Below, piece after piece: positions 4,806 to 14,264 of a DNA stretch of 64,000 bases. Source of the DNA: an uncultured Chloroflexia bacterium (GTDB lineage: Bacteria; Chloroflexota; Limnocylindria; Limnocylindrales; CSP1-4); assembly GCA_963707215.1 (NCBI GenBank), contig CAVPPB010000001.1, forward strand, positions 96,001 to 160,000, in the 5' to 3' direction. Below the pieces are notes generated by a model. It was not told where the DNA came from, searched no databases, and was given only the letters and a program-made list of their open reading frames with translations. Each line of letters starts with the position of its first letter. Position 1 is the first letter of the stretch. Both the position numbers and the translations under genes were made by a program.

Positions 4806-4920
4806 CGGGTCTGCGCTACTCGACGCGCCTCGGCGCGCCTCGGTTCCCTGGCTCGTCCTCGACGCGGCCCGGAGCCCCCGGCCGCGGGCACGGGCAGACG
4901 GGCGCTACGATGAGCGTCCG

Positions 4921-5007
4921 GCCGGAGTGGCGGAACTGGCAGACGCGTCGGTCTCAAACACCGATGAGGGCAACCTCGTGCGGGTTCAAATCCCGCCTCC
5001 GGCACCA
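4921..5007 (+). tRNA. tRNA-Leu (anticodon CAA)
   Basis: GCCGGAG/CTCCGGC acceptor stem, anticodon loop CTCAAAC, long variable arm, GGTTCAAATCC T-loop, encoded CCA. Confidence 0.95.
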
Positions 5008-5025
5008 GCGTTTCGTGCGTGAAGA

Positions 5026-5056
5026 GTGAGGGCCCGGCCGTTGGCCGGGCCCTCAC
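5026..5056 (+). terminator. Perfect 14-bp hairpin after tRNA
   Basis: GTGAGGGCCCGGCC-gtt-GGCCGGGCCCTCAC; no U-tract. Confidence 0.6.
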
Positions 5057-5154
5057 GACTGGCCGAGGTGTAGCCAAACTGAGTCTTGCTGACCACCACG
5101 GCCCTCGCTCCGGGCCGGCTGGCGCGATCTCGCTGACCCAGGGGGGAAGGCGAC

Positions 5155-5239
5155 CAGCCCACGGCCGGGCGACGGGGGCCGTCTACGGGCGCGCTGCCTC
5201 TTGCAGGACGCGTTACACGACGTCACCGTGCCCCCATGC
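5155..5239 (+). promoter_or_regulatory. Repeated leader R1 with putative sigma70 promoter (copy 1)
   Basis: TTGCAG-17nt-CACCGT; aligns with 6904-, 8257- and 12158- copies. Confidence 0.5.
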
Positions 5240-5314
5240 GCGGGGGGCAGTGACGCGCGGCCAATCGCCTACGGCCGCCGGGACCGCGCCGAGCCACTGG
5301 CGAGACCGACCCGC
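5240..5314 (+). ncRNA. c-di-GMP-II-like riboswitch variant, copy 1
   Basis: P1 GCGG/CCGC, UGA..GAG kink-turn, P3 stem, CGCC/GGCG pseudoknot, 3' GAGCCACTGGCGAGACCGACCCG. Confidence 0.75.
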
Positions 5315-5396
5315 TGGAAACCGGATCCGCAAGAGGACCGGCCAAGTTCGATCAGGCTGAGATGGGCCTTCGGCATCAGGCGGTGAGAGGACTGCG

Positions 5397-5765
5397 ATGA
5401 CGACTGAGCGATCTCGTCTGACCGCCGCACTGTCTCTGGCGGTCGCGGTCGTCGTGATCGTCGTCAGCCCGATGCTGCTCGACGCCCCGAACCCGCTGTC
5501 GACGCCCGCTGCGGTGATCGTCGCGGTCGGCTGTGGCGGTGCGTTGCTCGGTGGGCGTGGCGCTGAGTGGGTCGCGTTGGCCGTCAGCGTGGCCGGGCTC
5601 GTGTTGTCCGTCCTGTGGCTCTGGCTCGCGAGCGATGGCTTCGGGCAGGGCACGCCCTGGTGGGACGACATCGTCGAGGCCGCGATCCTCGCTGCGGCAT
5701 TCCTCGTCGCGCTCGCCTTCCTGCTGCTTGCACGTCGGCAACGAGCACGGTCGCGAGCGACCTGA
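5397..5765 (+). CDS. Small 4-TM membrane protein
   Basis: GAGGA RBS, four hydrophobic segments, basic tail. Confidence 0.7.
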   Translation: MTTERSRLTAALSLAVAVVVIVVSPMLLDAPNPLSTPAAVIVAVGCGGALLGGRGAEWVALAVSVAGLVLSVLWLWLASDGFGQGTPWWDDIVEAAILAAAFLVALAFLLLARRQRARSRAT

Positions 5766-5971
5766 CCGCGCACAGCACCACCGCCGTCAAGGTCGCCTGG
5801 CAGCGTCTTCGGGTAGCCCGCGACGAGCGCGGCACTAACCCTCGCCCCAGCCCCGGCTCCACGTGTCGCCCTCGATCACGGCCTCGCCGTCCAGAGGAGC
5901 GGCAGCGTCCGGGGTCAGTTCGGGACCGCCGCCTCTAGGCAGTAGGTAGGCGTCACGCATCCTCCTGGCCT

Positions 5972-6050
5972 GGGCGAGAGGCCCTGACGCGCGGCCAATC
6001 GCCTCTGCCCGCCGGGACCGCGCCGAGCCACTGGCGAGACCGACCCGCCC
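5972..6050 (+). ncRNA. c-di-GMP-II-like riboswitch variant, copy 2 (no clear downstream gene)
   Basis: Near-identical to copy 1 core; P1 GGGCG/CGCCC. Confidence 0.7.
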
Positions 6051-6221
6051 TAGGTTTAGGGGAGGGCGCCCCGATGGGCAGATCCTCGTGGGCGGCCGTG
6101 CCAGCCGCCCTCACACCTCCGGTGGCCGCCGGTCTCCTGCTCGCGACGGTAGTGGTGGGCGCCGAGTACCGACCCCCCGGGTCCTGACCAGCCCGCGGCC
6201 GGGCGACGGGAGCCGCTCGGC

Positions 6222-6824
6222 CTACCGAGCGCGACGATGTCGCTGGGAGCGTCGGTTGGCCGTCAACCCGAGCCCGGCCATCAGCGCCAGGAGACCAAGC
6301 CCGGCCGGTCCCCGCGGCGGTGATGGCTGACGGGCCGCGGCGGCGGTATCGGTCTCTGGCAGGACGGCGAAGCGATGGGTGACCGTGACCGAGTAGTCGC
6401 TCGAGCCCATGACGACGACATCGCTCCAGATGACCCGCTGCCCGTAGGTCTCGCCGCCATCGGCATCGGCATAGAAGCCGATCGACCAGCGGTACTCGAC
6501 CCGCGCCCCAGGCGGGACGGGGAACGACACCACATAGATCCGGCCGTTCTCGCAGGGCGGTGGCAGGTAGGGACCTCCCGGGTAGTCGGCCTGGACCGAC
6601 TTTGGCTCGCAGATGGTGGTGCCGGACGTTCCCTCCTCGTGCATGAAGAAGACGTTCGCCGGGACGGGGCCTCTGAGGGCCAGGCGCAGCGTCAAGGTGG
6701 GCCAGTCCGACTCGGCGGTCGCGACCGCGACGGTCTGGGCCGCGGCTGACGGCACCTGGCTCAACAGCAGGGCGACGCCGCACGCAAGTAGGGCCAACCG
6801 CGCCGTCCATCGATGAGCGCGCAT
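6222..6824 (-). CDS. Secreted protein with LPETD-TM-basic C-terminal sorting-like signal
   Basis: GGAGG RBS, signal peptide ending AAA-Q, C-terminal LPETD...GLGLLALMAGLGL...RRSQRHRRAR. Confidence 0.75.
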   Translation of the reverse strand: MRAHRWTARLALLACGVALLLSQVPSAAAQTVAVATAESDWPTLTLRLALRGPVPANVFFMHEEGTSGTTICEPKSVQADYPGGPYLPPPCENGRIYVVSFPVPPGARVEYRWSIGFYADADGGETYGQRVIWSDVVVMGSSDYSVTVTHRFAVLPETDTAAAARQPSPPRGPAGLGLLALMAGLGLTANRRSQRHRRAR

Positions 6825-6903
6825 CGCTCGTCATCCCTCCGGATGAGTTGAAGCCATGGCTTGAAGCTCGTGGATGAGACGCGCACAGCCGGCCAGCGTG
6901 AGC

Positions 6904-7003
6904 ACAAGCCCACAGCCACCCCCGCCGGCCGCTCAGGCCCTCGGTCTCTTGCCCGGTACGTTCCACGACCGGCACCCTCGACGCCATAGCGCGGGGGGTG
7001 CTG
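6904..7003 (+). repeat. Repeated leader R1 with truncated aptamer
   Basis: TCAGGCCCTCGG..TTGCCC..GTACGTTCCACGACCGGCACCCT..CCATAGCGCGGGGGG matches 8285-8352. Confidence 0.8.
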
Positions 7004-7057
7004 CGCTCTCTCCTGCCAGCCCGCCTCGCGACGAGGCGTCCCGGGAGGCAGCGACAG

Positions 7058-7596
7058 TGCGCGGCATCCTGCGAACGATTGCCGTCACGCTTGCGACCGC
7101 GACGCTCACCGGGGTCGCTCTTCTCGGCGATGCTCCGCCCGCCTAGGGCGAGGAGCTTGGGCTGGGCGGGCCGAGCCGCGTCGTCGGCGTGACATACGTG
7201 CAGCCACAGTGCGGCGATGCCATCTTCGCCGGCGACTCGGTCGGCTCGGTTCGCATCCAGAGGCCCTTCTCGGAGGCCCACCAGAACTACGACGGGATCT
7301 ACATCACATATAGGTTCAAGGGGCCGTGGTGCCTGATCCAGCCCGACCTGTTCTGGTCGATCTACCTGACGACCGATACGCACCCGAGAACCAGGCTCCA
7401 GAACTTCAACATGCCCTGCAGCGGCTCTCGGGATCGCGAGTACGAGTCGACCATCTATCTCCGATACCTTGGCATCGACTACACAGAGGCTGAGCTCTTC
7501 GCCGAGACCGTGACATTCGAGGTCCACCTCGAGGGCGACGACGGCTTCTCGGGGATCTGGGCGCCCTTCATGGTTGGATCGAGTCCGAGCGAGTAG
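7058..7596 (+). pseudogene. Secreted protein interrupted by in-frame TAG at 7144-7146
   Basis: GGAGG RBS, GTG start, signal peptide MRGILRTIAVTLATATLTGVALLGDAPPA*, same frame continues into ORF 7189-7596. Confidence 0.6.
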
Positions 7597-7599
7597 CCC

Positions 7600-7722
7600 G
7601 CCGCTCCACCGCCCGCGCCTCCAGCCCGTCCCAGAACGCCGAGGTGGCGCGCTGGCGGCCCTCGGCCCCGGCCTGCGCCTCCCAAGGCCGCCACGGCCGC
7701 CTCGGCCGCCTCCGGGGGCGTA
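7600..7722 (-). repeat. Repeat R2 copy A (frameshifted remnant of small ORF)
   Basis: CCAGAACGCCGAGGTG..CGGCCCTCGGC..CTCCCA shared with 9632, 10810, 13992. Confidence 0.75.
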
Positions 7723-7733
7723 TCCGGCTGGAC

Positions 7734-7783
7734 GAGATCGCTATCCGGCCACGGAGCCGGGGGCGAGCGACACCCTAGGTGGT
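7734..7783 (+). repeat. Repeat R3 copy A
   Basis: GAGATCGCTA.{3}GGCCACGGAGCCGGGG..AGCGACACCC matches reverse complement of 13042-13089. Confidence 0.75.
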
Positions 7784-8215
7784 TCACCTGGTCGAGAGCC
7801 ACCATCCGGCGGCGCACCCGGCGGAATAGGCGAGCACCCCGGCTGTGCCCGCGATGAGCCAGTAGGGGTAGAGGTCGGGGTCGACCCGGCCGACGACGAG
7901 GGTCCACAGGTGGGGAAAGACGGTAAAGGCAAGCCAGCCGCCGAGGGCACCCGCGATCGCGGCCCAGATCGTCCGGCCACCCCACCGGGCAGTGGCTGCC
8001 CCGACCATGACGGCCAGCAGGGGCGGAAGGGCGAAGAGCACCAGCGCGCCGAAGCTGAGCATGAGGGCCGGAAGCTCGAAGAGCGCCGCCCAGCCGGCCA
8101 CGGCGACCGCCGTTCCGATCGAGCCGATCACAAAGGCCCGGCCGGTGCCGATCGCCATGGCCCAACGGTCGCCGTCACCGCTGCCTGCGAGCGGGCTGAC
8201 CCCTTGTGACTTCAT
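7784..8215 (-). CDS. Small 4-TM membrane protein (start uncertain, 8215 or 8158)
   Basis: Hydrophobic C-terminal half of ORF 7784-8524. Confidence 0.6.
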   Translation of the reverse strand: MKSQGVSPLAGSGDGDRWAMAIGTGRAFVIGSIGTAVAVAGWAALFELPALMLSFGALVLFALPPLLAVMVGAATARWGGRTIWAAIAGALGGWLAFTVFPHLWTLVVGRVDPDLYPYWLIAGTAGVLAYSAGCAAGWWLSTR

Positions 8216-8256
8216 CTCGGAAGGGTTGACGCCGCAGGCGACGAACCGTTGCACGA

Positions 8257-8344
8257 GCCAGCCCGCGGCCAGGCGACGGCGTCCGTTCAGGCCCTCGGCC
8301 TCTAGACCCGTACGTTCCGCGACCGGCACCCTGACCGCCATAGC
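8257..8344 (+). promoter_or_regulatory. Repeated leader R1 with putative promoter
   Basis: Near-identical to 12158-12246; TAGACC-18nt-CACCCT. Confidence 0.6.
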
Positions 8345-8423
8345 GCGGGGGGCGCTGACGCACGGTCGATGAGCCACGGCCGCCCAAGACGACCCTGCTG
8401 AGCCACTGGCGAGACCGACCCGC
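8345..8423 (+). ncRNA. c-di-GMP-II-like riboswitch variant, copy 3
   Basis: GCGGGGGGCGCTGACGCACGGTCG...CGGCCGCC...CGACCCTGCTGAGCCACTGGCGAGACCGACCCGC. Confidence 0.75.
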
Positions 8424-8448
8424 CTGCCCGAGAGATGGAGTCTTGCGC

Positions 8449-9603
8449 ATGCACAGGCGACTGTTCGCCGGCGCCATCGCGGTCTTGGCAACGCTGGCAA
8501 TCGCTTCGCCGGCGGTCGCTGCACCGCCGGCCAACGACACCTACTCCGGCCGGGAGTTGCTCCTCGACCCGCTGCCGATCATGGTCATGGCGGATACCAC
8601 CGAGGCAACCACTGACGCAGACGACGCCGAGCTGGATGTCCAGTGCGGTGCGTCGGCGGTCGATGCTAGCGTGTGGTACGAGTACACGCCCACGCTGGCC
8701 GGCGACTACGAGATCAACACCCTCGCCTCGGACTACAGCGTCGGCGCGATCGTGGCCATCGGCGGCCCGGGCGGCTGGACCCTGTTGAGTTGCGGTCCCG
8801 GGACCATCCCCTTCACTGCGATCGCCGGGGAGACGTACGCGATCCTGATCTTCGACGACCAGACCGACGGAGGCGGCAACGGCGGCTATCTGGAGTTCTC
8901 GATTGCGCCGGTGGTGCCGAACGAGCCGCCGGTGGCCGACCCGAACGGGCCGTACCTGGGCGCGGTTGGTGCCGCGATCTCGTTTGACGGCACTCGATCG
9001 TCGGACCCCGAAGGCGACACGCTCACCTACGACTGGGACTGGGGCGACGGCACGTCCTCTACTGACGTTGGGTCCACGCCGACCCACACCTACGATGCCG
9101 CCGGCATCTACGACGTGTGTCTGACGGTGACCGACCCATCCGGCGCATCGGGTAGGGCCTGCACGTCGGCCGTCGTCTACGACCCGTCGGCTGGGTTCGT
9201 TACCGGCGGCGGCTGGATCGACTCGGTGGCCGGCGCATACGTGCCCGACCCGACGCTGACAGGCAAGGCGACCTTCGGGTTCGTGTCCAAGTACACGAAG
9301 GGCGCCGCTACCCCGACCGGCAACACCGAATTCGTGTTCCAGACCGCCGACCTCAACTTCCATGCGACGAGCTACGACTGGCTGGTCGTGACCGGCAGCG
9401 ACTACGCCCGCTACAAGGGCATCGGCACGATCAACGGCACGGGCGACTACAAGTTCCTGCTGTGGGCCGGCGACAACGACCCGGACACGTTCCGGATCAA
9501 GATCTGGACCGAAGACGCGGCCGGCGTCGAGGCCGTCGTCTATGACAACGGGATGGATCAGCCCATCTCGGGCGGCAGCATCGTCGTCCACACCAAGAGG
9601 TAG
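8449..9603 (+). CDS. Secreted PKD-domain protein
   Basis: Signal peptide; PKD motifs FDGTRSSDPEGD..YDWDWGDG..HTYDAAGIYDVCLTVTD; C-terminal GFVTGGGWI domain. Confidence 0.88.
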   Translation: MHRRLFAGAIAVLATLAIASPAVAAPPANDTYSGRELLLDPLPIMVMADTTEATTDADDAELDVQCGASAVDASVWYEYTPTLAGDYEINTLASDYSVGAIVAIGGPGGWTLLSCGPGTIPFTAIAGETYAILIFDDQTDGGGNGGYLEFSIAPVVPNEPPVADPNGPYLGAVGAAISFDGTRSSDPEGDTLTYDWDWGDGTSSTDVGSTPTHTYDAAGIYDVCLTVTDPSGASGRACTSAVVYDPSAGFVTGGGWIDSVAGAYVPDPTLTGKATFGFVSKYTKGAATPTGNTEFVFQTADLNFHATSYDWLVVTGSDYARYKGIGTINGTGDYKFLLWAGDNDPDTFRIKIWTEDAAGVEAVVYDNGMDQPISGGSIVVHTKR

Positions 9604-9725
9604 GAGCGACCGCCCACGCGTCCAGATCCGCCCAGAACGCCGAGGTGCCGCGCTCACGGCCCTCGGCGTCCCCTCGCACCTCCCAGGCCATCATCGCCGC
9701 CACGGCCTCCCCGGCAGCCTCCTGG
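9604..9725 (-). repeat. Repeat R2 copy B
   Basis: Minus strand reads AWEVRGDAEGRERGTSAFWADLDAW, homologous to copies A and C. Confidence 0.75.
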
Positions 9726-10000
9726 GTGCATGCGCGGTCGCGTGGACGGGGCGACCCTGGAAGACCGCGCTCTACTCCGGGCGCTCTCCTGGCTCCTCAG
9801 CCCGGAGGCCTCGGGCCTGCTCGCCTCCCACGGGTCCGGTGGTCGCATCCCGAGCCCAGTTGGTCGGATCCATCAGGCGAGAGAACCGCGCACCCAGCGC
9901 AGCCAGGCCGCCAGCACTCAGCGCGGCTAGCTCCTCATCGGCTTGGGCGCGATCCGCCTGCTGCTGCAGTGCTTCGTCGACGGCGATGAGCGCTTCGGAC

Positions 10001-10225
10001 ATGGCCTCGGCCGACCAGCCGTTCACGATCCGCTTCGCCAACAACGACGCTGGGGTCCCCCACAACGCCGAGATCAAGGACGGATCCGGAGCGACGGTCT
10101 TCCTGGGCGAGATCTTCAACGGCGTCGACACCCGCGACTATGCCGTGCCGGCGCTGCCGGCCGGGACCTACACCTTCGTCTGCACGGTCCACCCGAACAT
10201 GACCGGCACCCTGACGATCGGATAG
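10001..10225 (+). pseudogene. Cupredoxin-domain C-terminal fragment
   Basis: PHN and YTFVCTVHPNMTGTL type-1 copper ligands; no signal peptide or N-terminus. Confidence 0.7.
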
Positions 10226-10280
10226 GCGACCAGCCCGTCCCCTGGGTTGCCCTCGACGTGACACTTGGATACGAATCCAC

Positions 10281-10703
10281 GTGCACGGGAGGATCGCCTT
10301 GGAGATCGCGCTCGCCGGCTTGCTCACCCTGGCGGTGCTGACGCCGGTCGCCATGTACGTGCTTCGGCGTCTCGATGAGCCAGGGCCGTCGGCGTACGCC
10401 GATCCGATGGATTCCGTCTACAGAGCGAACGCGACGGTCGATGAGCTGCTACCGACGTATGCGGCCCTCGGGTACGCGGTAGTCTCCCGCTCCGAGTTCC
10501 AGGCTCACCTCTTCCGGACCGAACCAAGCCACAAGAGGGACTCGAGCCGGAACCGACCACGAGAGATTCGACTCCACACTGACTTCACCGACAATGTCTG
10601 GGCCGACGGTCGGGGCGCCGTCTGCCCTGTATGCGGCCATCCGCGCCGTGGCGAATTCCGCTGCGCGAGGTGCAAGTCGAGCGAGACGGGACTTCCAGCG
10701 TGA
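10281..10703 (+). CDS. Hypothetical membrane-anchored protein with C-terminal zinc ribbon
   Basis: N-terminal TM; CPVC...CARC. Confidence 0.55.
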   Translation: MHGRIALEIALAGLLTLAVLTPVAMYVLRRLDEPGPSAYADPMDSVYRANATVDELLPTYAALGYAVVSRSEFQAHLFRTEPSHKRDSSRNRPREIRLHTDFTDNVWADGRGAVCPVCGHPRRGEFRCARCKSSETGLPA

Positions 10704-10784
10704 TGGACCTTCGCTGGAGGGTGACTGGCGGTTCACCAAGCGGGAGTCGCGACCGGCCAAGGCGGCTGCCAAGGGCTTCCACCT

Positions 10785-10856
10785 AGCCTCCCGCCACGGC
10801 CCCCGCTTCCCAGTACGCCCCATCGCCGCGCTGGCGGCCCTCGGCCTCGGCCAGAG
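10785..10856 (-). repeat. Repeat R2 copy D (short, degenerate)
   Basis: CCAGTACGCC..GCGCTGGCGGCCCTCGGCC matches copy A. Confidence 0.55.
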
Positions 10857-10934
10857 CGGATCCGTCGTTTCGTCGTTCATCAGGGGCATCGTAGTCTGGC
10901 GCGGGCTCGGCCAGCCGGAGACGGGGGCGGCCGA

Positions 10935-11528
10935 CTAGACCTTCCCGACCGCGGCCGTGCCCACCGAGATGGTCGGTTCGCGGAACGGGCTGCGGTCCGC
11001 GAGCCGGGTGAACGTCACCGTGACGAGCACGGAGCCCTTCAGGAAGTACCCACGCTCCAGATCGTCGACCCAGAGGGCGCCATCGCCGATGTCGAGCGCC
11101 TCCGCTCGGTCAGCCAGCGCCTGCTTGGTGTCGGCGAACGTGTTGGCCCCGTTGCCGGGCTCGACCATCACCGACAAGCCACCCCAGTCCTCGACCCAGC
11201 GACATTCGGTCACATTCGGATCCTGGTCGGATCCGAGCCGGTTGAGGTCACCGTCAGTGGCGCTGGCGGCGTCCAGGCCCAGGGCCGCGGCGACGTCAGC
11301 GGCGGTGACCAGCTGACACGCGGTCAGGTCGGTGCCCGGGGCCGCCGGGGCACCCCCACTCTCGTTCTCGCCGGTGCCCTCGCTCGCCTCGGCCTCGGGC
11401 GATGACGTGGCCGAGGCCCCACTCGGGGCGCTGGTGGTCGCCGCACCGCCGCAGCCCGCGGTCGCGAGCAGCACGCTCAGGACGATCGTGGCGGTCGTAC
11501 GACCGCCGATTACGTGGACGCTCAACAT
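10935..11528 (-). CDS. Putative lipoprotein (DUF3558-like)
   Basis: Lipobox TAGC, Ser/Ala linker, ACQLVTAADV and paired Cys. Confidence 0.7.
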   Translation of the reverse strand: MLSVHVIGGRTTATIVLSVLLATAGCGGAATTSAPSGASATSSPEAEASEGTGENESGGAPAAPGTDLTACQLVTAADVAAALGLDAASATDGDLNRLGSDQDPNVTECRWVEDWGGLSVMVEPGNGANTFADTKQALADRAEALDIGDGALWVDDLERGYFLKGSVLVTVTFTRLADRSPFREPTISVGTAAVGKV

Positions 11529-11750
11529 CGCGCCACCCCCTTCTCCTGCATCGTGGGCGGCACCAGTCGAAGCGCCGCCGGCCGGGACCTACGGAGAGCT
11601 GCCTCGACCTCGCAGGCGTCCCTCGAATCGTACGACCAAGCACCAGCCCCTCCAGGGCCTAACACCCGGTGGCGAGGTGACCGACAGGCCGTTCCGGGCG
11701 CAACACTCGAGCCCGATGGGCGTCATCCCGCTGATCGAAGGAAGGTGCCG

Positions 11751-12158
11751 ATGTCCCTTGGCTGTTCCGGGCGGGCGGCGATCTTCGCGCTCGTCCTCCT
11801 CGTCGGCGCGCTGCCCGCTGGGGTGATCGCGGGAGCCGTGCCAGGCCGGATCGTTGGGCTGCTACAGCGGCGTGGGGCCGTTCCTCCTCCTCGTGGTGGT
11901 CGTGGTTGCCGCGGCTCTGATCGCGGCCTCACTCCCCTGGGCGAGAGGACGAGCCCGGATGGACGCTGGCCGCTGCATCGCCCGCGACCGCAACGGCTTC
12001 GAGGGCATCCTCGAGGCCGGCCACGTCGGTCCCCATGCGGCCTCCAGGGTGATCCGGAGCTGGGTCGACGAGCCCACGCCGCCCACCGAGAAGGAGTCGG
12101 CAGGCGTACTGGCCGAGGAAGCCACGACGGCAACCCCGGACCAACCCCACGGTCCTGA
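11751..12158 (+). pseudogene. Frameshifted or degraded small membrane protein
   Basis: RBS and ATG 11751 with hydrophobic N-terminus, continuing in another frame (GPFLLLVVVVVAAALIAA). Confidence 0.35.
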
Positions 12159-12246
12159 CAAGCCCACGACCGGGCGACGCCGTCCGTTCAGGCCCTCGGC
12201 CTCTAGACCCGTACGTTCCACGACCGGCACCCTGACCGCCATGGCA
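12158..12246 (+). promoter_or_regulatory. Repeated leader R1 with putative promoter
   Basis: CGTCCGTTCAGGCCCTCGGCCTCTAGACCCGTACGTTCC identical to 8280-8318. Confidence 0.6.
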
Positions 12247-12323
12247 CGGGGGGCGCTGACGCACGGTCCCAGAGCTACGGCCGCCTGAGCGGACCGTGCC
12301 GAGCCACTGGCGAGACCGACCCG
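12247..12323 (+). ncRNA. c-di-GMP-II-like riboswitch variant, copy 4
   Basis: Perfect 9-bp P3 GCACGGTCC/GGACCGTGC, pseudoknot, conserved 3' 23-mer. Confidence 0.8.
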
Positions 12324-12368
12324 CTGGACCCATCCGCAACGACGCGGAAGCTCGGGAGGAACACGGTC

Positions 12369-13022
12369 ATGGGTTCGGTCTCGCACTTGCGGCGCTGGCG
12401 CCTCGTCGTCGGCATCATGATCCTGAGCCTATTCGCGATCCCGGCAGCGGGCATCGTGGTCGGCGCCACGACGCCCTTCCAGCAGGTCATCGTGACCAAC
12501 CCCGAGGAGAGTCCAATCCCCGTGTCGCTGACGGGCAGCAACGCGATCTCGGGCACCGTCACTGTCGGCAACCTGCCCGCGACCCAGCCCGTCTCGGGGA
12601 CGGTAAACGTGGGGAACAGCCCGACGGTGCAACTCGCCTCCGACTCGATAGTGGCCGTCGTCAACCCGACAGACGACCAGCCGCTTCTGGTTCAGGAGGT
12701 TGCTTCGGCGACGCCGTCACCCGCGGAGATCCTGCCACCGACTGGCAACACCATCATCGGCCCTGCCCGGCTCCAGATGGACTCCGTTGGCACATATCCA
12801 ATCCTGAGGGGCACGGTGTCGCTCGACTTCTGCATCACGGTCGTTCTCCTCGATGCCAACGGCTACGCGGAATTCCAAGCGAACCCGACCAGTGATTCCA
12901 CCTGGTACGGCATCTGGCCCGATGGCCCATTGGCAAGGTGTGAGGCGAGCAAGCAGAACGCCAACATCGACAATCATGTGGCCGGGACAGCTCTGGTCTA
13001 TCGCATCGACAGAATCCCCTAA
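12369..13022 (+). CDS. Secreted or membrane-anchored hypothetical protein
   Basis: GGAGGA RBS, N-terminal hydrophobic segment, repeated SGTV(T/N)VGN; visibly lower GC. Confidence 0.75.
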   Translation: MGSVSHLRRWRLVVGIMILSLFAIPAAGIVVGATTPFQQVIVTNPEESPIPVSLTGSNAISGTVTVGNLPATQPVSGTVNVGNSPTVQLASDSIVAVVNPTDDQPLLVQEVASATPSPAEILPPTGNTIIGPARLQMDSVGTYPILRGTVSLDFCITVVLLDANGYAEFQANPTSDSTWYGIWPDGPLARCEASKQNANIDNHVAGTALVYRIDRIP

Positions 13023-13041
13023 CGATTGGGGCCGAGCCGTC

Positions 13042-13089
13042 ACCTCCCAGGGGTGTCGCTCCCCGGCTCCGTGGCCCGCTAGCGATCTC
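13042..13089 (-). repeat. Repeat R3 copy B
   Basis: Reverse complement aligns to 7734-7783. Confidence 0.75.
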
Positions 13090-13322
13090 CCACCGAGTAG
13101 CACCGCGACGACAACGTCCTGCCTGCGCCACGGTTCGGACATAGCCCGACGCTAGCCCTTGCTCAGAGGCACGCCGATGCGGATGTCCCGCAACCAGGGC
13201 GACCGGCCCAGGGAAGGGACGCGGGCCGTTGCGTCGACGCACCGGGTTCGCAGGCCCTCAGGCCGGCTGGTCGAGGATCGCGGGCTGCGTCTGGAGCACC
13301 GGTGGCCTACGCTCGGGGCATC

Positions 13323-13402
13323 GGCGGGAGGCACTGACGCAAGATCCGAGCCCACGGCCGCCGCACCGGACCGCGCCGAGCCACTGGCGAGACCGACCCG
13401 CC
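13323..13402 (+). ncRNA. c-di-GMP-II-like riboswitch variant, copy 5
   Basis: GGCGGGAGGCACTGACGC...CGGCCGCC...GAGCCACTGGCGAGACCGACCCGCC; P3 partly degraded. Confidence 0.7.
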
Positions 13403-13425
13403 CGTCTTACCCTGGAGGTGGCGGT

Positions 13426-13977
13426 ATCCGCAGGATCGGTCTCGTCGCGCTGGTGGTGCTCGCCTTGATGGCGTCCGCGACGATCGTCTCGGCCGACAAC
13501 GGCAAGGCGGTCCCCGGCTGGAACTCGAACTCCAGCAAGTACACGGCCATCTCGGTCGCCAACCCCAACGACCCGAGCGAGGTGTCGGCCACCCTGGTCC
13601 GCGAGCGAACCTCCGACGCGGTCCTCGACCAGCACATCACGGCCCTCAACAACTGTGACTGGGCCGGGCTGATGCAGCAGTACCCCGATCAGTACGAGCT
13701 GCGACTCCCCGGCGGGGTACTCGTCTCCGGTCGGGAGGAAGCGGCCGAGACGTTCGCCGGCTTCGTCAAGCCATACACCGAGGGCGGGCTCTGCGGGATC
13801 ATCTTCAGCGAGGTCTCCCGCGATGTCGTCGCCGGCACCCTGGCGGTGAGCTGGGTCGCCGATGCCCCCTTCCTGGCTGAGCCGTACTACGGCGCGGACG
13901 CCTACATCACCGACGACGGCCTGATGGTCTCGATGGTCAGCACCTTCGACGGCGCGGAGCTGGTCTTCGCTCCCTAG
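13426..13977 (+). CDS. Secreted SnoaL/NTF2-like protein (start uncertain)
   Basis: Signal peptide RRIGLVALVVLALMASATIVSA; VLDQHITALN..D...LM..Y NTF2-like pattern. Confidence 0.7.
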   Translation: MRRIGLVALVVLALMASATIVSADNGKAVPGWNSNSSKYTAISVANPNDPSEVSATLVRERTSDAVLDQHITALNNCDWAGLMQQYPDQYELRLPGGVLVSGREEAAETFAGFVKPYTEGGLCGIIFSEVSRDVVAGTLAVSWVADAPFLAEPYYGADAYITDDGLMVSMVSTFDGAELVFAP

Positions 13978-14159
13978 GCCGTCCTGGACGCGAAGAACGC
14001 CGGGGTGCCGCGCCCTCGGCCCTCGGCCTCAGCCAGCCCCTCCCAGGCCGCTACGGCCTCCTCGGCCGCCTCCGGGGGCATCCGGGCGACATCGCGCAAC
14101 CGGGCGACTTGGGCGGCCCGGGGGGCCTGGTGGATGCGCTCGGGATCGCGACGTCGCAT
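13974..14159 (-). CDS. 61-aa small hypothetical protein, the most complete copy (C) of repeat R2
   Basis: MRRRDPERIHQAPRAAQVARLRDVARMPPEAAEEAVAAWEGLAEAEGRGRGTPAFFASRTA; stop overlaps convergent gene at CTAG. Confidence 0.5.
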   Translation of the reverse strand: MRRRDPERIHQAPRAAQVARLRDVARMPPEAAEEAVAAWEGLAEAEGRGRGTPAFFASRTA

Positions 14160-14264
14160 GGCGGCGCGGTCGGGCCCGGGGGTTGACCTGCCGCTTGACG
14201 CGAGGCGGACGATCCCATCAGCGGCGACCTGCCCCGGGCATCGACGATCGACGAGGACCCTTCG

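Follow-up and report, generated by a model that had tools for sequence, protein, structure and literature searches.

Five closely related riboswitch aptamers lie between positions 5,240 and 13,402 of a 64,000-nucleotide (nt) stretch of DNA from an uncultured bacterium of the Limnocylindria (phylum Chloroflexota). This stretch, hereafter the window, corresponds to C1:96001-160000 of a 3.26 Mb (3,257,968 bases) assembly that has 5 contigs and is 84.8% complete (genome G000; C1 to C3 denote contigs). All five truly belong to Rfam family RF03169, c-di-GMP-II-GAG, a variant of the class II riboswitches for cyclic di-GMP (c-di-GMP), and we regard it as almost certain that they act as cis-regulators of this class. 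The explanation that we favor with good confidence is that they are GAG-class cis-regulatory leaders with an altered ligand pocket that likely control translation. Each aptamer would form the 5' leader of its own mRNA, and would most likely govern translation initiation of the gene directly downstream.

Identity, fold and ligand pocket of the aptamers

A scan of the whole window with Rfam yields six matches at or above the gathering score, five of which belong to RF03169 (gathering score 40 bits). Numbered in order along the forward strand, they are located at 5234-5320 (63.5 bits, E 2.6e-10), 5968-6054 (55.3 bits), 8339-8428 (57.5 bits), 12240-12328 (62.3 bits) and 13318-13407 (57.0 bits). 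Each match covers model positions 1-86 of 86, and RF03169 is retained at all five sites after competition within clan CL00127. The model of the canonical c-di-GMP-II family, RF01786, has a gathering score of 53.5 bits; on it copies 4, 1 and 2 reach 33.2, 32.6 and 29.5 bits, and copies 3 and 5 are absent from its 12 matches in the genome. A first-pass annotation of this DNA had pointed to a likeness to c-di-GMP-II-GAG and proposed a covariance-model comparison with the two Rfam families. The comparison supports that assignment, since all five sites score 55.3-63.5 bits with RF03169 and at most 33.2 bits with RF01786, well below the cut-off of the latter.

The annotation was built on a 23-mer, GAGCCACTGGCGAGACCGACCCG, that indeed occurs at exactly five sites of the window (5291, 6025, 8400, 12301 and 13378), always on the forward strand and with no additional site even when up to 3 mismatches are allowed. 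The number expected by chance is 0.01, and a count of five was reached in none of 100 shuffles. Ahead of the 23-mer, as the annotation had described, all five copies carry the 5' motif R-GGC-NN-TGACGC and a loop that reads GCCGCC in copies 1, 3, 4 and 5 and CCCGCC in copy 2. Helix P3 was said to alternate between GCAC/GTGC and GCGC/GCGC, which holds for copies 3 and 4 and for copies 1 and 2, respectively, and fails for copy 5, where P3, read by eye, needs a shift in register and then contains an AA bulge and a single A.C mismatch; cmscan marks 3 non-standard P3 pairs in this copy.

Each element is predicted to fold into P1, P2 and P3 with a kink-turn-like loop, and a pseudoknot that pairs YGG-N-CGCC of the P3 loop with GGCG-AGA-CCG of the 3' segment. 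A covariance model built from the 16 GAG-type copies of this genome was used to search 100 loci taken from related genomes and from a motif scan, and returned 110 matches. Pairs were counted in P1, P2, P3 and the two pseudoknot helices (loop YGG/CGCC with 3' CCG/GGCG). Among these homologues 88.4% of cells form standard pairs, as compared with 22-43% for slid partners, 20 of the 25 pairs have changes on both sides, and none of 500 shuffles reached any of five pairing measures. The two pseudoknot helices are paired in 92.4% and 99.1% of cases, and locus L036, which was not chosen by the motif, has a double change in the pseudoknot (loop CGTC with 3' GACG). The kink-turn-like loop between P2 and P3, a 3-nt bulge plus tandem G.A pairs (GGC-NNN-GA ... 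GA-GCC), is present in all five window copies, and its strict pattern in 34 of 47 sequences that were not motif-selected. The proposed class II layout of a kink-turn plus a pseudoknot is thereby supported. Three features of the alignment qualify these pairing figures: it was itself fitted to a covariance model, its 3' segment was preset by the search pattern in 71 of the 100 loci, and canonical copies within it contribute several of the pseudoknot double changes.

The pocket can be compared with the canonical class II structure 3Q3Z (PMC13715770), where the sugar edge of A69 reads the upper guanine of the ligand by three hydrogen bonds, G73 reads the lower guanine, A70 is intercalated between both ligand bases, the adenine after P2 forms the ceiling, and the ligand backbone is stacked on the A14-U60 pair of P2. 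We assigned the positions ourselves, taking the conserved A behind P2 as the starting point of the count. The 3' segment is GGCG-AGA-CCG in all five window copies, which by this mapping replaces A69 by G and leaves A70 and G73 in place; the ceiling A is retained as well. P2 begins with a G-C pair where the canonical type has A14-U60, and the C that precedes A69 in the canonical type is A in the GAG copies; the canonical copy found in the same genome reads GTGC-AA-CCG. The earlier statement that CAA becomes AGA is thus correct, and the AGA triplet (5303-5305, 6037-6039, 8412-8414, 12313-12315 and 13390-13392 in copies 1 to 5) falls on ligand-contacting positions. We infer that the name GAG refers to the bases at the equivalents of A69, A70 and G73.

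The same replacement prevails beyond the window. In 47 distinct sequences, none of them motif-selected, the triplet between the pseudoknot helices is AGA in 32, GGA in 3, AAC in 2, and GAC, AAA and AGC in one each; the canonical CAA is found in 3 and CAC in 1, and 3 sequences are unassignable. In an engineered class II aptamer, c-di-GMP-II-Bh, the matching A-U to G-C exchange (A9G/U55C) shifted the affinities for two isomers of cyclic GMP-AMP (cGAMP; PMC13715770). Taken together with the contacts in the structure, this places both pocket differences at positions that are known to matter. The engineered aptamer resembles the natural GAG copies in having G-C at the first P2 position; in contrast to them, it keeps A at the reader of the upper base, where the GAG copies have G, and has a single-nucleotide deletion (PMC13715770).

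With respect to known families, the window copies share with RF03169 the P1/P2/P3/pseudoknot layout, the G-A-G signature and the position in the 5' untranslated region, and no structural difference was seen. With canonical class II aptamers (RF01786) they share the fold, the kink-turn-like loop and the pseudoknot in addition to the three retained pocket bases; they differ in the replaced A69, in the C-to-A change before it, in the first P2 pair, and in scoring below the RF01786 cut-off.

The regulon in the genome and its relatives

On the whole genome RF03169 gives 20 matches, 17 of them above the cut-off, and RF01786 gives 12, of which only C2:20184-20267 is above the cut-off (59.6 bits). The latter is also a 42-bit match of RF03169, which leaves the genome with 16 copies of the GAG type, a single canonical one and three relatives below threshold. 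The best GAG copy reaches 40.9 bits on the canonical model, against its cut-off of 53.5. At 16 copies per 3,257,968 bases about 0.04 would be expected per 8.2 kb, and the five observed in the window therefore represent real clustering; two further clusters have three copies each (C3:1265462-1273631 and C1:718504-747288). Two of the sub-threshold relatives, C2:194150-194239 and C2:199994-200081 (35.4 and 35.6 bits), keep GGCGAGACCGACC and have a different 5' half. They are followed by genes for paralogous small secreted proteins, 67% identical, and may constitute a further sub-variant.

RF03169 matches occur in 28 of 36 genomes of the same family and in none of 24 genomes (1.0-1.4 Mb) of the sister family; the richest relatives have 25, 19, 18, 18 and 14 matches. 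The figure of 28 overstates the number of GAG carriers, because the model also catches canonical copies: the lone match of G010, G012 and G019 shares its coordinates with a canonical match, and the lone match of G011 is apparently canonical as well, given that its locus is centred on a canonical match. In G031 the lone match reads GTGCAACC. A scan for a degenerate 3' motif, with one genome per species, found at least 119 stretches. Among the 80 matches listed, 69 have titles with Chloroflexi, Chloroflexota, Chloroflexia, Limnocylindrales, Limnocylindria or Anaerolineaceae, and the remaining 11 belong to Actinomycetes/Actinomycetota (including Cellulomonas, Nakamurella and Mycobacteriales), Myxococcales, Acidoferrum and Isosphaeraceae. 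Deinococcus radiodurans is the sole one of 14 control genomes that matches RF03169, and likewise RF01786, each above the cut-off.

All 16 GAG copies of the genome have an open reading frame (ORF) downstream on the same strand. Among 17 downstream proteins of this genome, six have Pfam matches above the cut-off (ATC_hydrolase, DUF6326, alpha/beta hydrolase, Polyketide_cyc2, the PKD domain of window ORF 3, and a SAM methyltransferase), three have only sub-cut-off matches (including SnoaL_2 in window ORF 5), and eight have none; similarity among all these proteins is limited to two related pairs. In related genomes, 59 of 82 predicted downstream proteins contain, within their first 45 residues, an uncharged run of 12 or more. 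Their commonest families are SnoaL_2 (8), Polyketide_cyc2 (5), DUF4440 (5), SnoaL_3 (4), Kelch_4 (3) and Abhydrolase_1 (3), with beta-helix, collagen and DUF642 at two each, and the GGDEF, EAL and HD families are not among the 25 most frequent. As predicted from sequence, the 16 leaders of this genome form a regulon of unrelated genes whose products are small and are secreted, membrane-bound or of the NTF2-like/SRPBCC kind.

The canonical copy provides a contrast to this set. It precedes the gene of a membrane protein that combines a GYP motif with an HD_5 domain (E 1.7e-37), whereas the GAG copies front genes of secreted and membrane proteins. Canonical matches above the cut-off are found in 14 of 37 genomes, one in each and all in the large-genome family. 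In 10 of 11 canonical loci the same strand carries an HD...GYP motif 1.1-1.2 kb further downstream, and the eleventh locus ends after 1200 nt. The canonical type is thus placed upstream of a probable c-di-GMP-degrading enzyme. In the genome studied here (locus L017) the HD-GYP gene falls into three overlapping frames, so that assembly indels or spurious ORFs that overlap are suspected. The division of targets between the canonical and GAG types is compatible with different ligands and with different thresholds alike.

Expression platform, downstream genes and spread of the leaders

In 13 of the 16 copies of this genome, 14-41 nt separate the aptamer end from the start codon, as compared with 76 nt in copy 1 and 118 nt at C1:740186; counting copy 5, which was read by eye, the start lies within 41 nt in 14 of 16. 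Across 94 homologues the median distances downstream from the pseudoknot are 18 nt to the beginning of the Shine-Dalgarno (SD) sequence (interquartile range 16-22) and 31 nt to the start codon (27-35). A consensus scan of 4900-14200 detects no intrinsic terminator-like site between aptamer and ORF for any of the five copies, the sole such site in this region falling inside ORF 3. The short aptamer-to-ribosome-binding-site distances reported earlier for copies 3-5 are therefore accurate, and the absence of terminators between aptamers and ORFs makes translational control the likeliest mode; we are fairly confident that control is exerted at translation rather than termination. A transcriptional or Rho-dependent mechanism, by which the ligand would alter elongation or transcript stability and not ribosome access, is improbable. 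It could draw on the long linkers of copy 1, where a hairpin seen by eye directly follows the aptamer, and of C1:740186, and on the lack of a specific signal in the SD-sequestration test described below; however, no terminator-like site was found at the five copies, and a spacing of mostly 16-22 nt between pseudoknot and SD leaves no room for one.

Given translational control, folding predictions lean toward an ON rather than an OFF response to ligand binding, an assignment that we rate as somewhat favored. The predicted mean probability that the SD is unpaired rises from 0.44 in the free ensemble to 0.56 when the aptamer pairs are enforced (94 leaders), and predicted accessibility goes up by more than 0.2 in 26 leaders and down in one. 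It is this asymmetry that suggests an ON switch. The 67 leaders in which accessibility is unchanged weigh against it, as does the outcome for the apparent sequestering strand. In free-ensemble folds the main partner of the SD is the 3' strand of P1 (0.236 per nt, versus at most 0.09 for other segments). The duplex energy of cognate pairs, however, is -8.12 versus -8.14 for non-cognate ones and -7.86 for shuffled strands, and 1113 of 2000 permutations reach a value that is as low or lower. Since cognate strands pair no better than non-cognate ones, the P1/SD complementarity merely reflects a C-rich segment meeting a G-rich one, and SD sequestration by the P1 3' strand, rejected on this test, is kept only as a weak lead.

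A GCGTCC(C) motif stands immediately ahead of the SD in many leaders (e.g. L075, L100, L099 and C3:1265553), and CGTCC is found between aptamer and SD in 23 of the 94. Genome-wide, the arrangement GCGTCCC-SD-start occurs at 34 sites, of which 6 adjoin aptamers, 2 adjoin deleted aptamers and at least 5 look like ordinary ribosome-binding-site contexts. By eye the motif does not covary with the GACGC or GGGAGGC of the aptamer, and a pairing partner was not found.

The five genes behind the window aptamers are all on the forward strand. ORF 1 (5397-5765; SD GAGAGGA at 5385-5391) encodes a hydrophobic membrane protein of 122 amino acids (aa), with the longest of the five linkers, a frame plot that is coding over 5460-5730, and Pfam matches that are all below the cut-off. 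ORF 2 (6074-6187; SD GGGGAGGG at 6059-6066) encodes 37 aa that resemble a signal peptide or transmembrane segment. It is possibly a remnant of a longer gene, because an orphan copy of the upstream leader 30-mer described below begins at 6186. ORF 3 (8449-9603; ATG at 8449, SD GGAG at 8437-8440) encodes a secreted protein of 384 aa with a PKD domain (PKD_4, E 2.2e-22). ORF 4 (12369-13022; SD GGGAGG at 12354-12359) encodes 217 aa with an N-terminal transmembrane segment or signal; it has no Pfam family, and a protein Atlas search returned hypothetical clusters only, with low recognition. ORF 5 (13426-13977; SD GGAGG at 13414-13418) encodes a secreted protein with a SnoaL_2 match of 22 bits, below the cut-off of 27. 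None of the codons ATG, GTG and TTG is available at SD distance, and the sole codon there, read by eye, is ATC at 13426, 7 nt past GGAGG. In the related locus L034 this place is taken by ATG, and the ATC may reflect a mutated start codon, an error in sequencing or initiation at a non-canonical codon.

Similarity among the five window proteins is not detectable. They are not paralogues; what was spread is the leader and not the gene. Copies 3 and 4 are 90% identical over 164 nt, including 79 nt of upstream leader (repeat D3), and copies 1 and 2 are 90% identical over 78 nt (repeat D1). The conserved upstream leader of copy 3 (8256-8338, forward strand) recurs at 12157-12239 (repeats D3, D4 and D7) and presumably holds a promoter. 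It includes a 30-mer, GACCAGCCCRCGGCCGGGCGACG..., that is found four times (5152-5181, 6186-6215, 8256-8285 and 12157-12186; 0.15 expected), about 82 nt upstream of aptamers 1, 3 and 4 and once without an aptamer, directly after ORF 2. The 30-mer may be a promoter or operator; it does not match the sigma-70 consensus, and a consensus scan of 4900-14200 gave no sigma-70-like promoters.

A sixth, internally deleted module is located at 6923-7056 on the forward strand (repeat D4). It retains the leader and, up to ~7003, the initial ~20 nt of the aptamer, after which ~16 nt replace the aptamer core and are followed by a P1 3' remnant, CCCGC, and the ribosome site GCGTCCCGGGAGG at 7036-7048; it has no RF03169 match. 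The same form of deletion is present once more in the genome, in C3:154783-154890 (at C3:154823). The ORF behind the deleted module (7057-7596, forward strand) has a GTG start, a signal-like stretch of 29 aa, and an in-frame TAG at 7144-7146; it is otherwise open to 7596, with a frame plot that is coding over 7140-7620.

A second repeat is ~85 nt long and contains a GC-rich, conserved hairpin (CGCCGAGG...CCTCGGCG) that lacks a U tail; it occurs at 7628-7717, 9629-9726, 10808-10857 and 13989-14077, 10-110 nt past the stop codons of forward-strand genes including ORFs 3 and 5. Two more copies, found by eye, lie on C3 near other aptamer modules, and about five true copies overall are recognized by eye. 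Fold z-scores are -2.3, -2.2 and +0.3, and a loose search gives mostly chance matches.

These duplications with flanking sequence, the persistence of two internally deleted copies and the second repeat after several of the same genes could be explained by a dispersed or recombination-spread leader whose RNA structure is incidental, any regulation being exerted by a promoter or a protein. We consider this very improbable, as the stems show compensatory changes while the pocket stays fixed, the elements precede a same-strand ORF in every case and mostly at short start spacing, they are present across many genera and a few other phyla, and they match a curated riboswitch model from end to end.

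Other features adjoin the modules in the window. The sixth Rfam match is a tRNA at 4921-5004, identified as tRNA-Leu(CAA) by ARAGORN. An exported protein with a cupredoxin-like domain (E 6.6e-07) is encoded at 9542-10225 on the forward strand, and an exported lipoprotein with a DUF3558 match below the cut-off at 10935-11528 on the reverse strand.

The ligand and the significance of the GAG class

We consider the evidence evenly balanced on whether the ligand is a nucleotide second messenger other than c-di-GMP, e.g. an adenine-containing or linear dinucleotide. More specifically, the GAG class may sense a cyclic dinucleotide of the cyclic di-AMP (c-di-AMP) type or a linear product such as pGpG, a tentative proposal to which we give slightly less than an even chance. 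A possible candidate is c-di-AMP, as the genome encodes one DAC cyclase and, at its present completeness, has no match to the known c-di-AMP riboswitch RF00379. For cGAMP there is no visible source in the 84.8% complete genome, which has neither a Hypr signature nor a SMODS cyclase match. A ligand of some other kind is improbable.

The chief alternative is that the ligand is the same and the tuning differs: the A69-to-G replacement and the G-C pair would shift the affinity or kinetics for c-di-GMP, and the effectors and the HD-GYP feedback would respond at different levels. We regard this as possible, with a probability distinctly below even. Several observations speak for it and against a changed ligand. 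In addition to the HD-GYP protein, the genome has 11 GGDEF and 3 EAL matches. GGDEF is found in all 36 genomes of the family and in none of the 24 of the sister family, and matches of the GAG model, including those to the canonical type, are confined to the GGDEF-bearing family, which mildly favors c-di-GMP or its products. The GGDEF domains appear ordinary: among 10 segments, 2 of them degenerate, all 8 intact GG[DE]EF domains have Asp at the determinant site of Hypr (cGAMP-making) enzymes, and the SMODS search likewise gave no alternative cyclase. Regulons of secreted and surface proteins are typical of c-di-GMP control, and the targets found here (PKD, Kelch, beta-helix and collagen-repeat proteins) are of this kind. 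Finally, A70, G73 and the ceiling A are unchanged in the GAG copies, and an engineered class II pocket takes A or G at the upper site (PMC13715770). Opposed to this, it is the changed nucleotide that, in the canonical structure, contacts the upper guanine through three hydrogen bonds; 32 of the 47 non-motif-chosen sequences share the change, and a canonical copy is kept separately and singly; the GAG copies stay at or below 40.9 bits on a model whose cut-off is 53.5; and the literature searched by family name and related terms gave papers in which the Rfam model names are listed, and no report of a ligand for c-di-GMP-II-GAG.

The family was reportedly described by Weinberg et al. (PNAS, 2017), who are said to raise the possibility that c-di-GMP-I and c-di-GMP-II variants respond to other signaling molecules of bacteria. 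The idea of an altered ligand is reasonable and, by that account, already in print. PMC9295807 describes a pipeline that seeks pocket mutations in known riboswitch classes, for which it cites Weinberg et al. 2017, and mentions GEMM-Ib as c-di-GMP-I variants that sense 3',3'-cGAMP. GEMM-Ib is a precedent for the retargeting of a c-di-GMP aptamer to another dinucleotide by one pocket substitution; it differs from the present case in its class I fold and in having a known cognate synthase, whereas no cGAMP synthase signature was found here. Within the literature searched, what is new in this study is the lineage, the extent and make-up of the regulon, the conserved division of roles with the canonical copy, and the decayed sixth module; the copy number (16, and up to 25 matches in relatives) and the local cluster of five are further additions to the known family.

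The c-di-GMP-II-GAG family is a riboswitch candidate with a curated model that lacks a reported ligand in that literature, and the genome described here offers a compact test bed for it, with 16 variant leaders and one canonical leader in a single cell, cleanly separate target genes, and a short list of nucleotide cyclases (canonical-looking GGDEF proteins and one DAC, with SMODS not found). Identification of the ligand would reveal either a new second messenger sensed by RNA or the way in which one pocket substitution retunes a c-di-GMP sensor. If the signal is different, soil Limnocylindria would run two class II circuits in parallel: the single canonical switch would provide feedback on the HD-GYP phosphodiesterase, and a regulon that answers to a second signal, whose leaders number 10-25 per genome in some relatives, would govern a secretome made up of NTF2-like, SRPBCC and surface-repeat proteins. 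The dominance of small secreted proteins in the regulon suggests a signal that controls the cell surface and exoproteome of an abundant and largely uncultured soil lineage.

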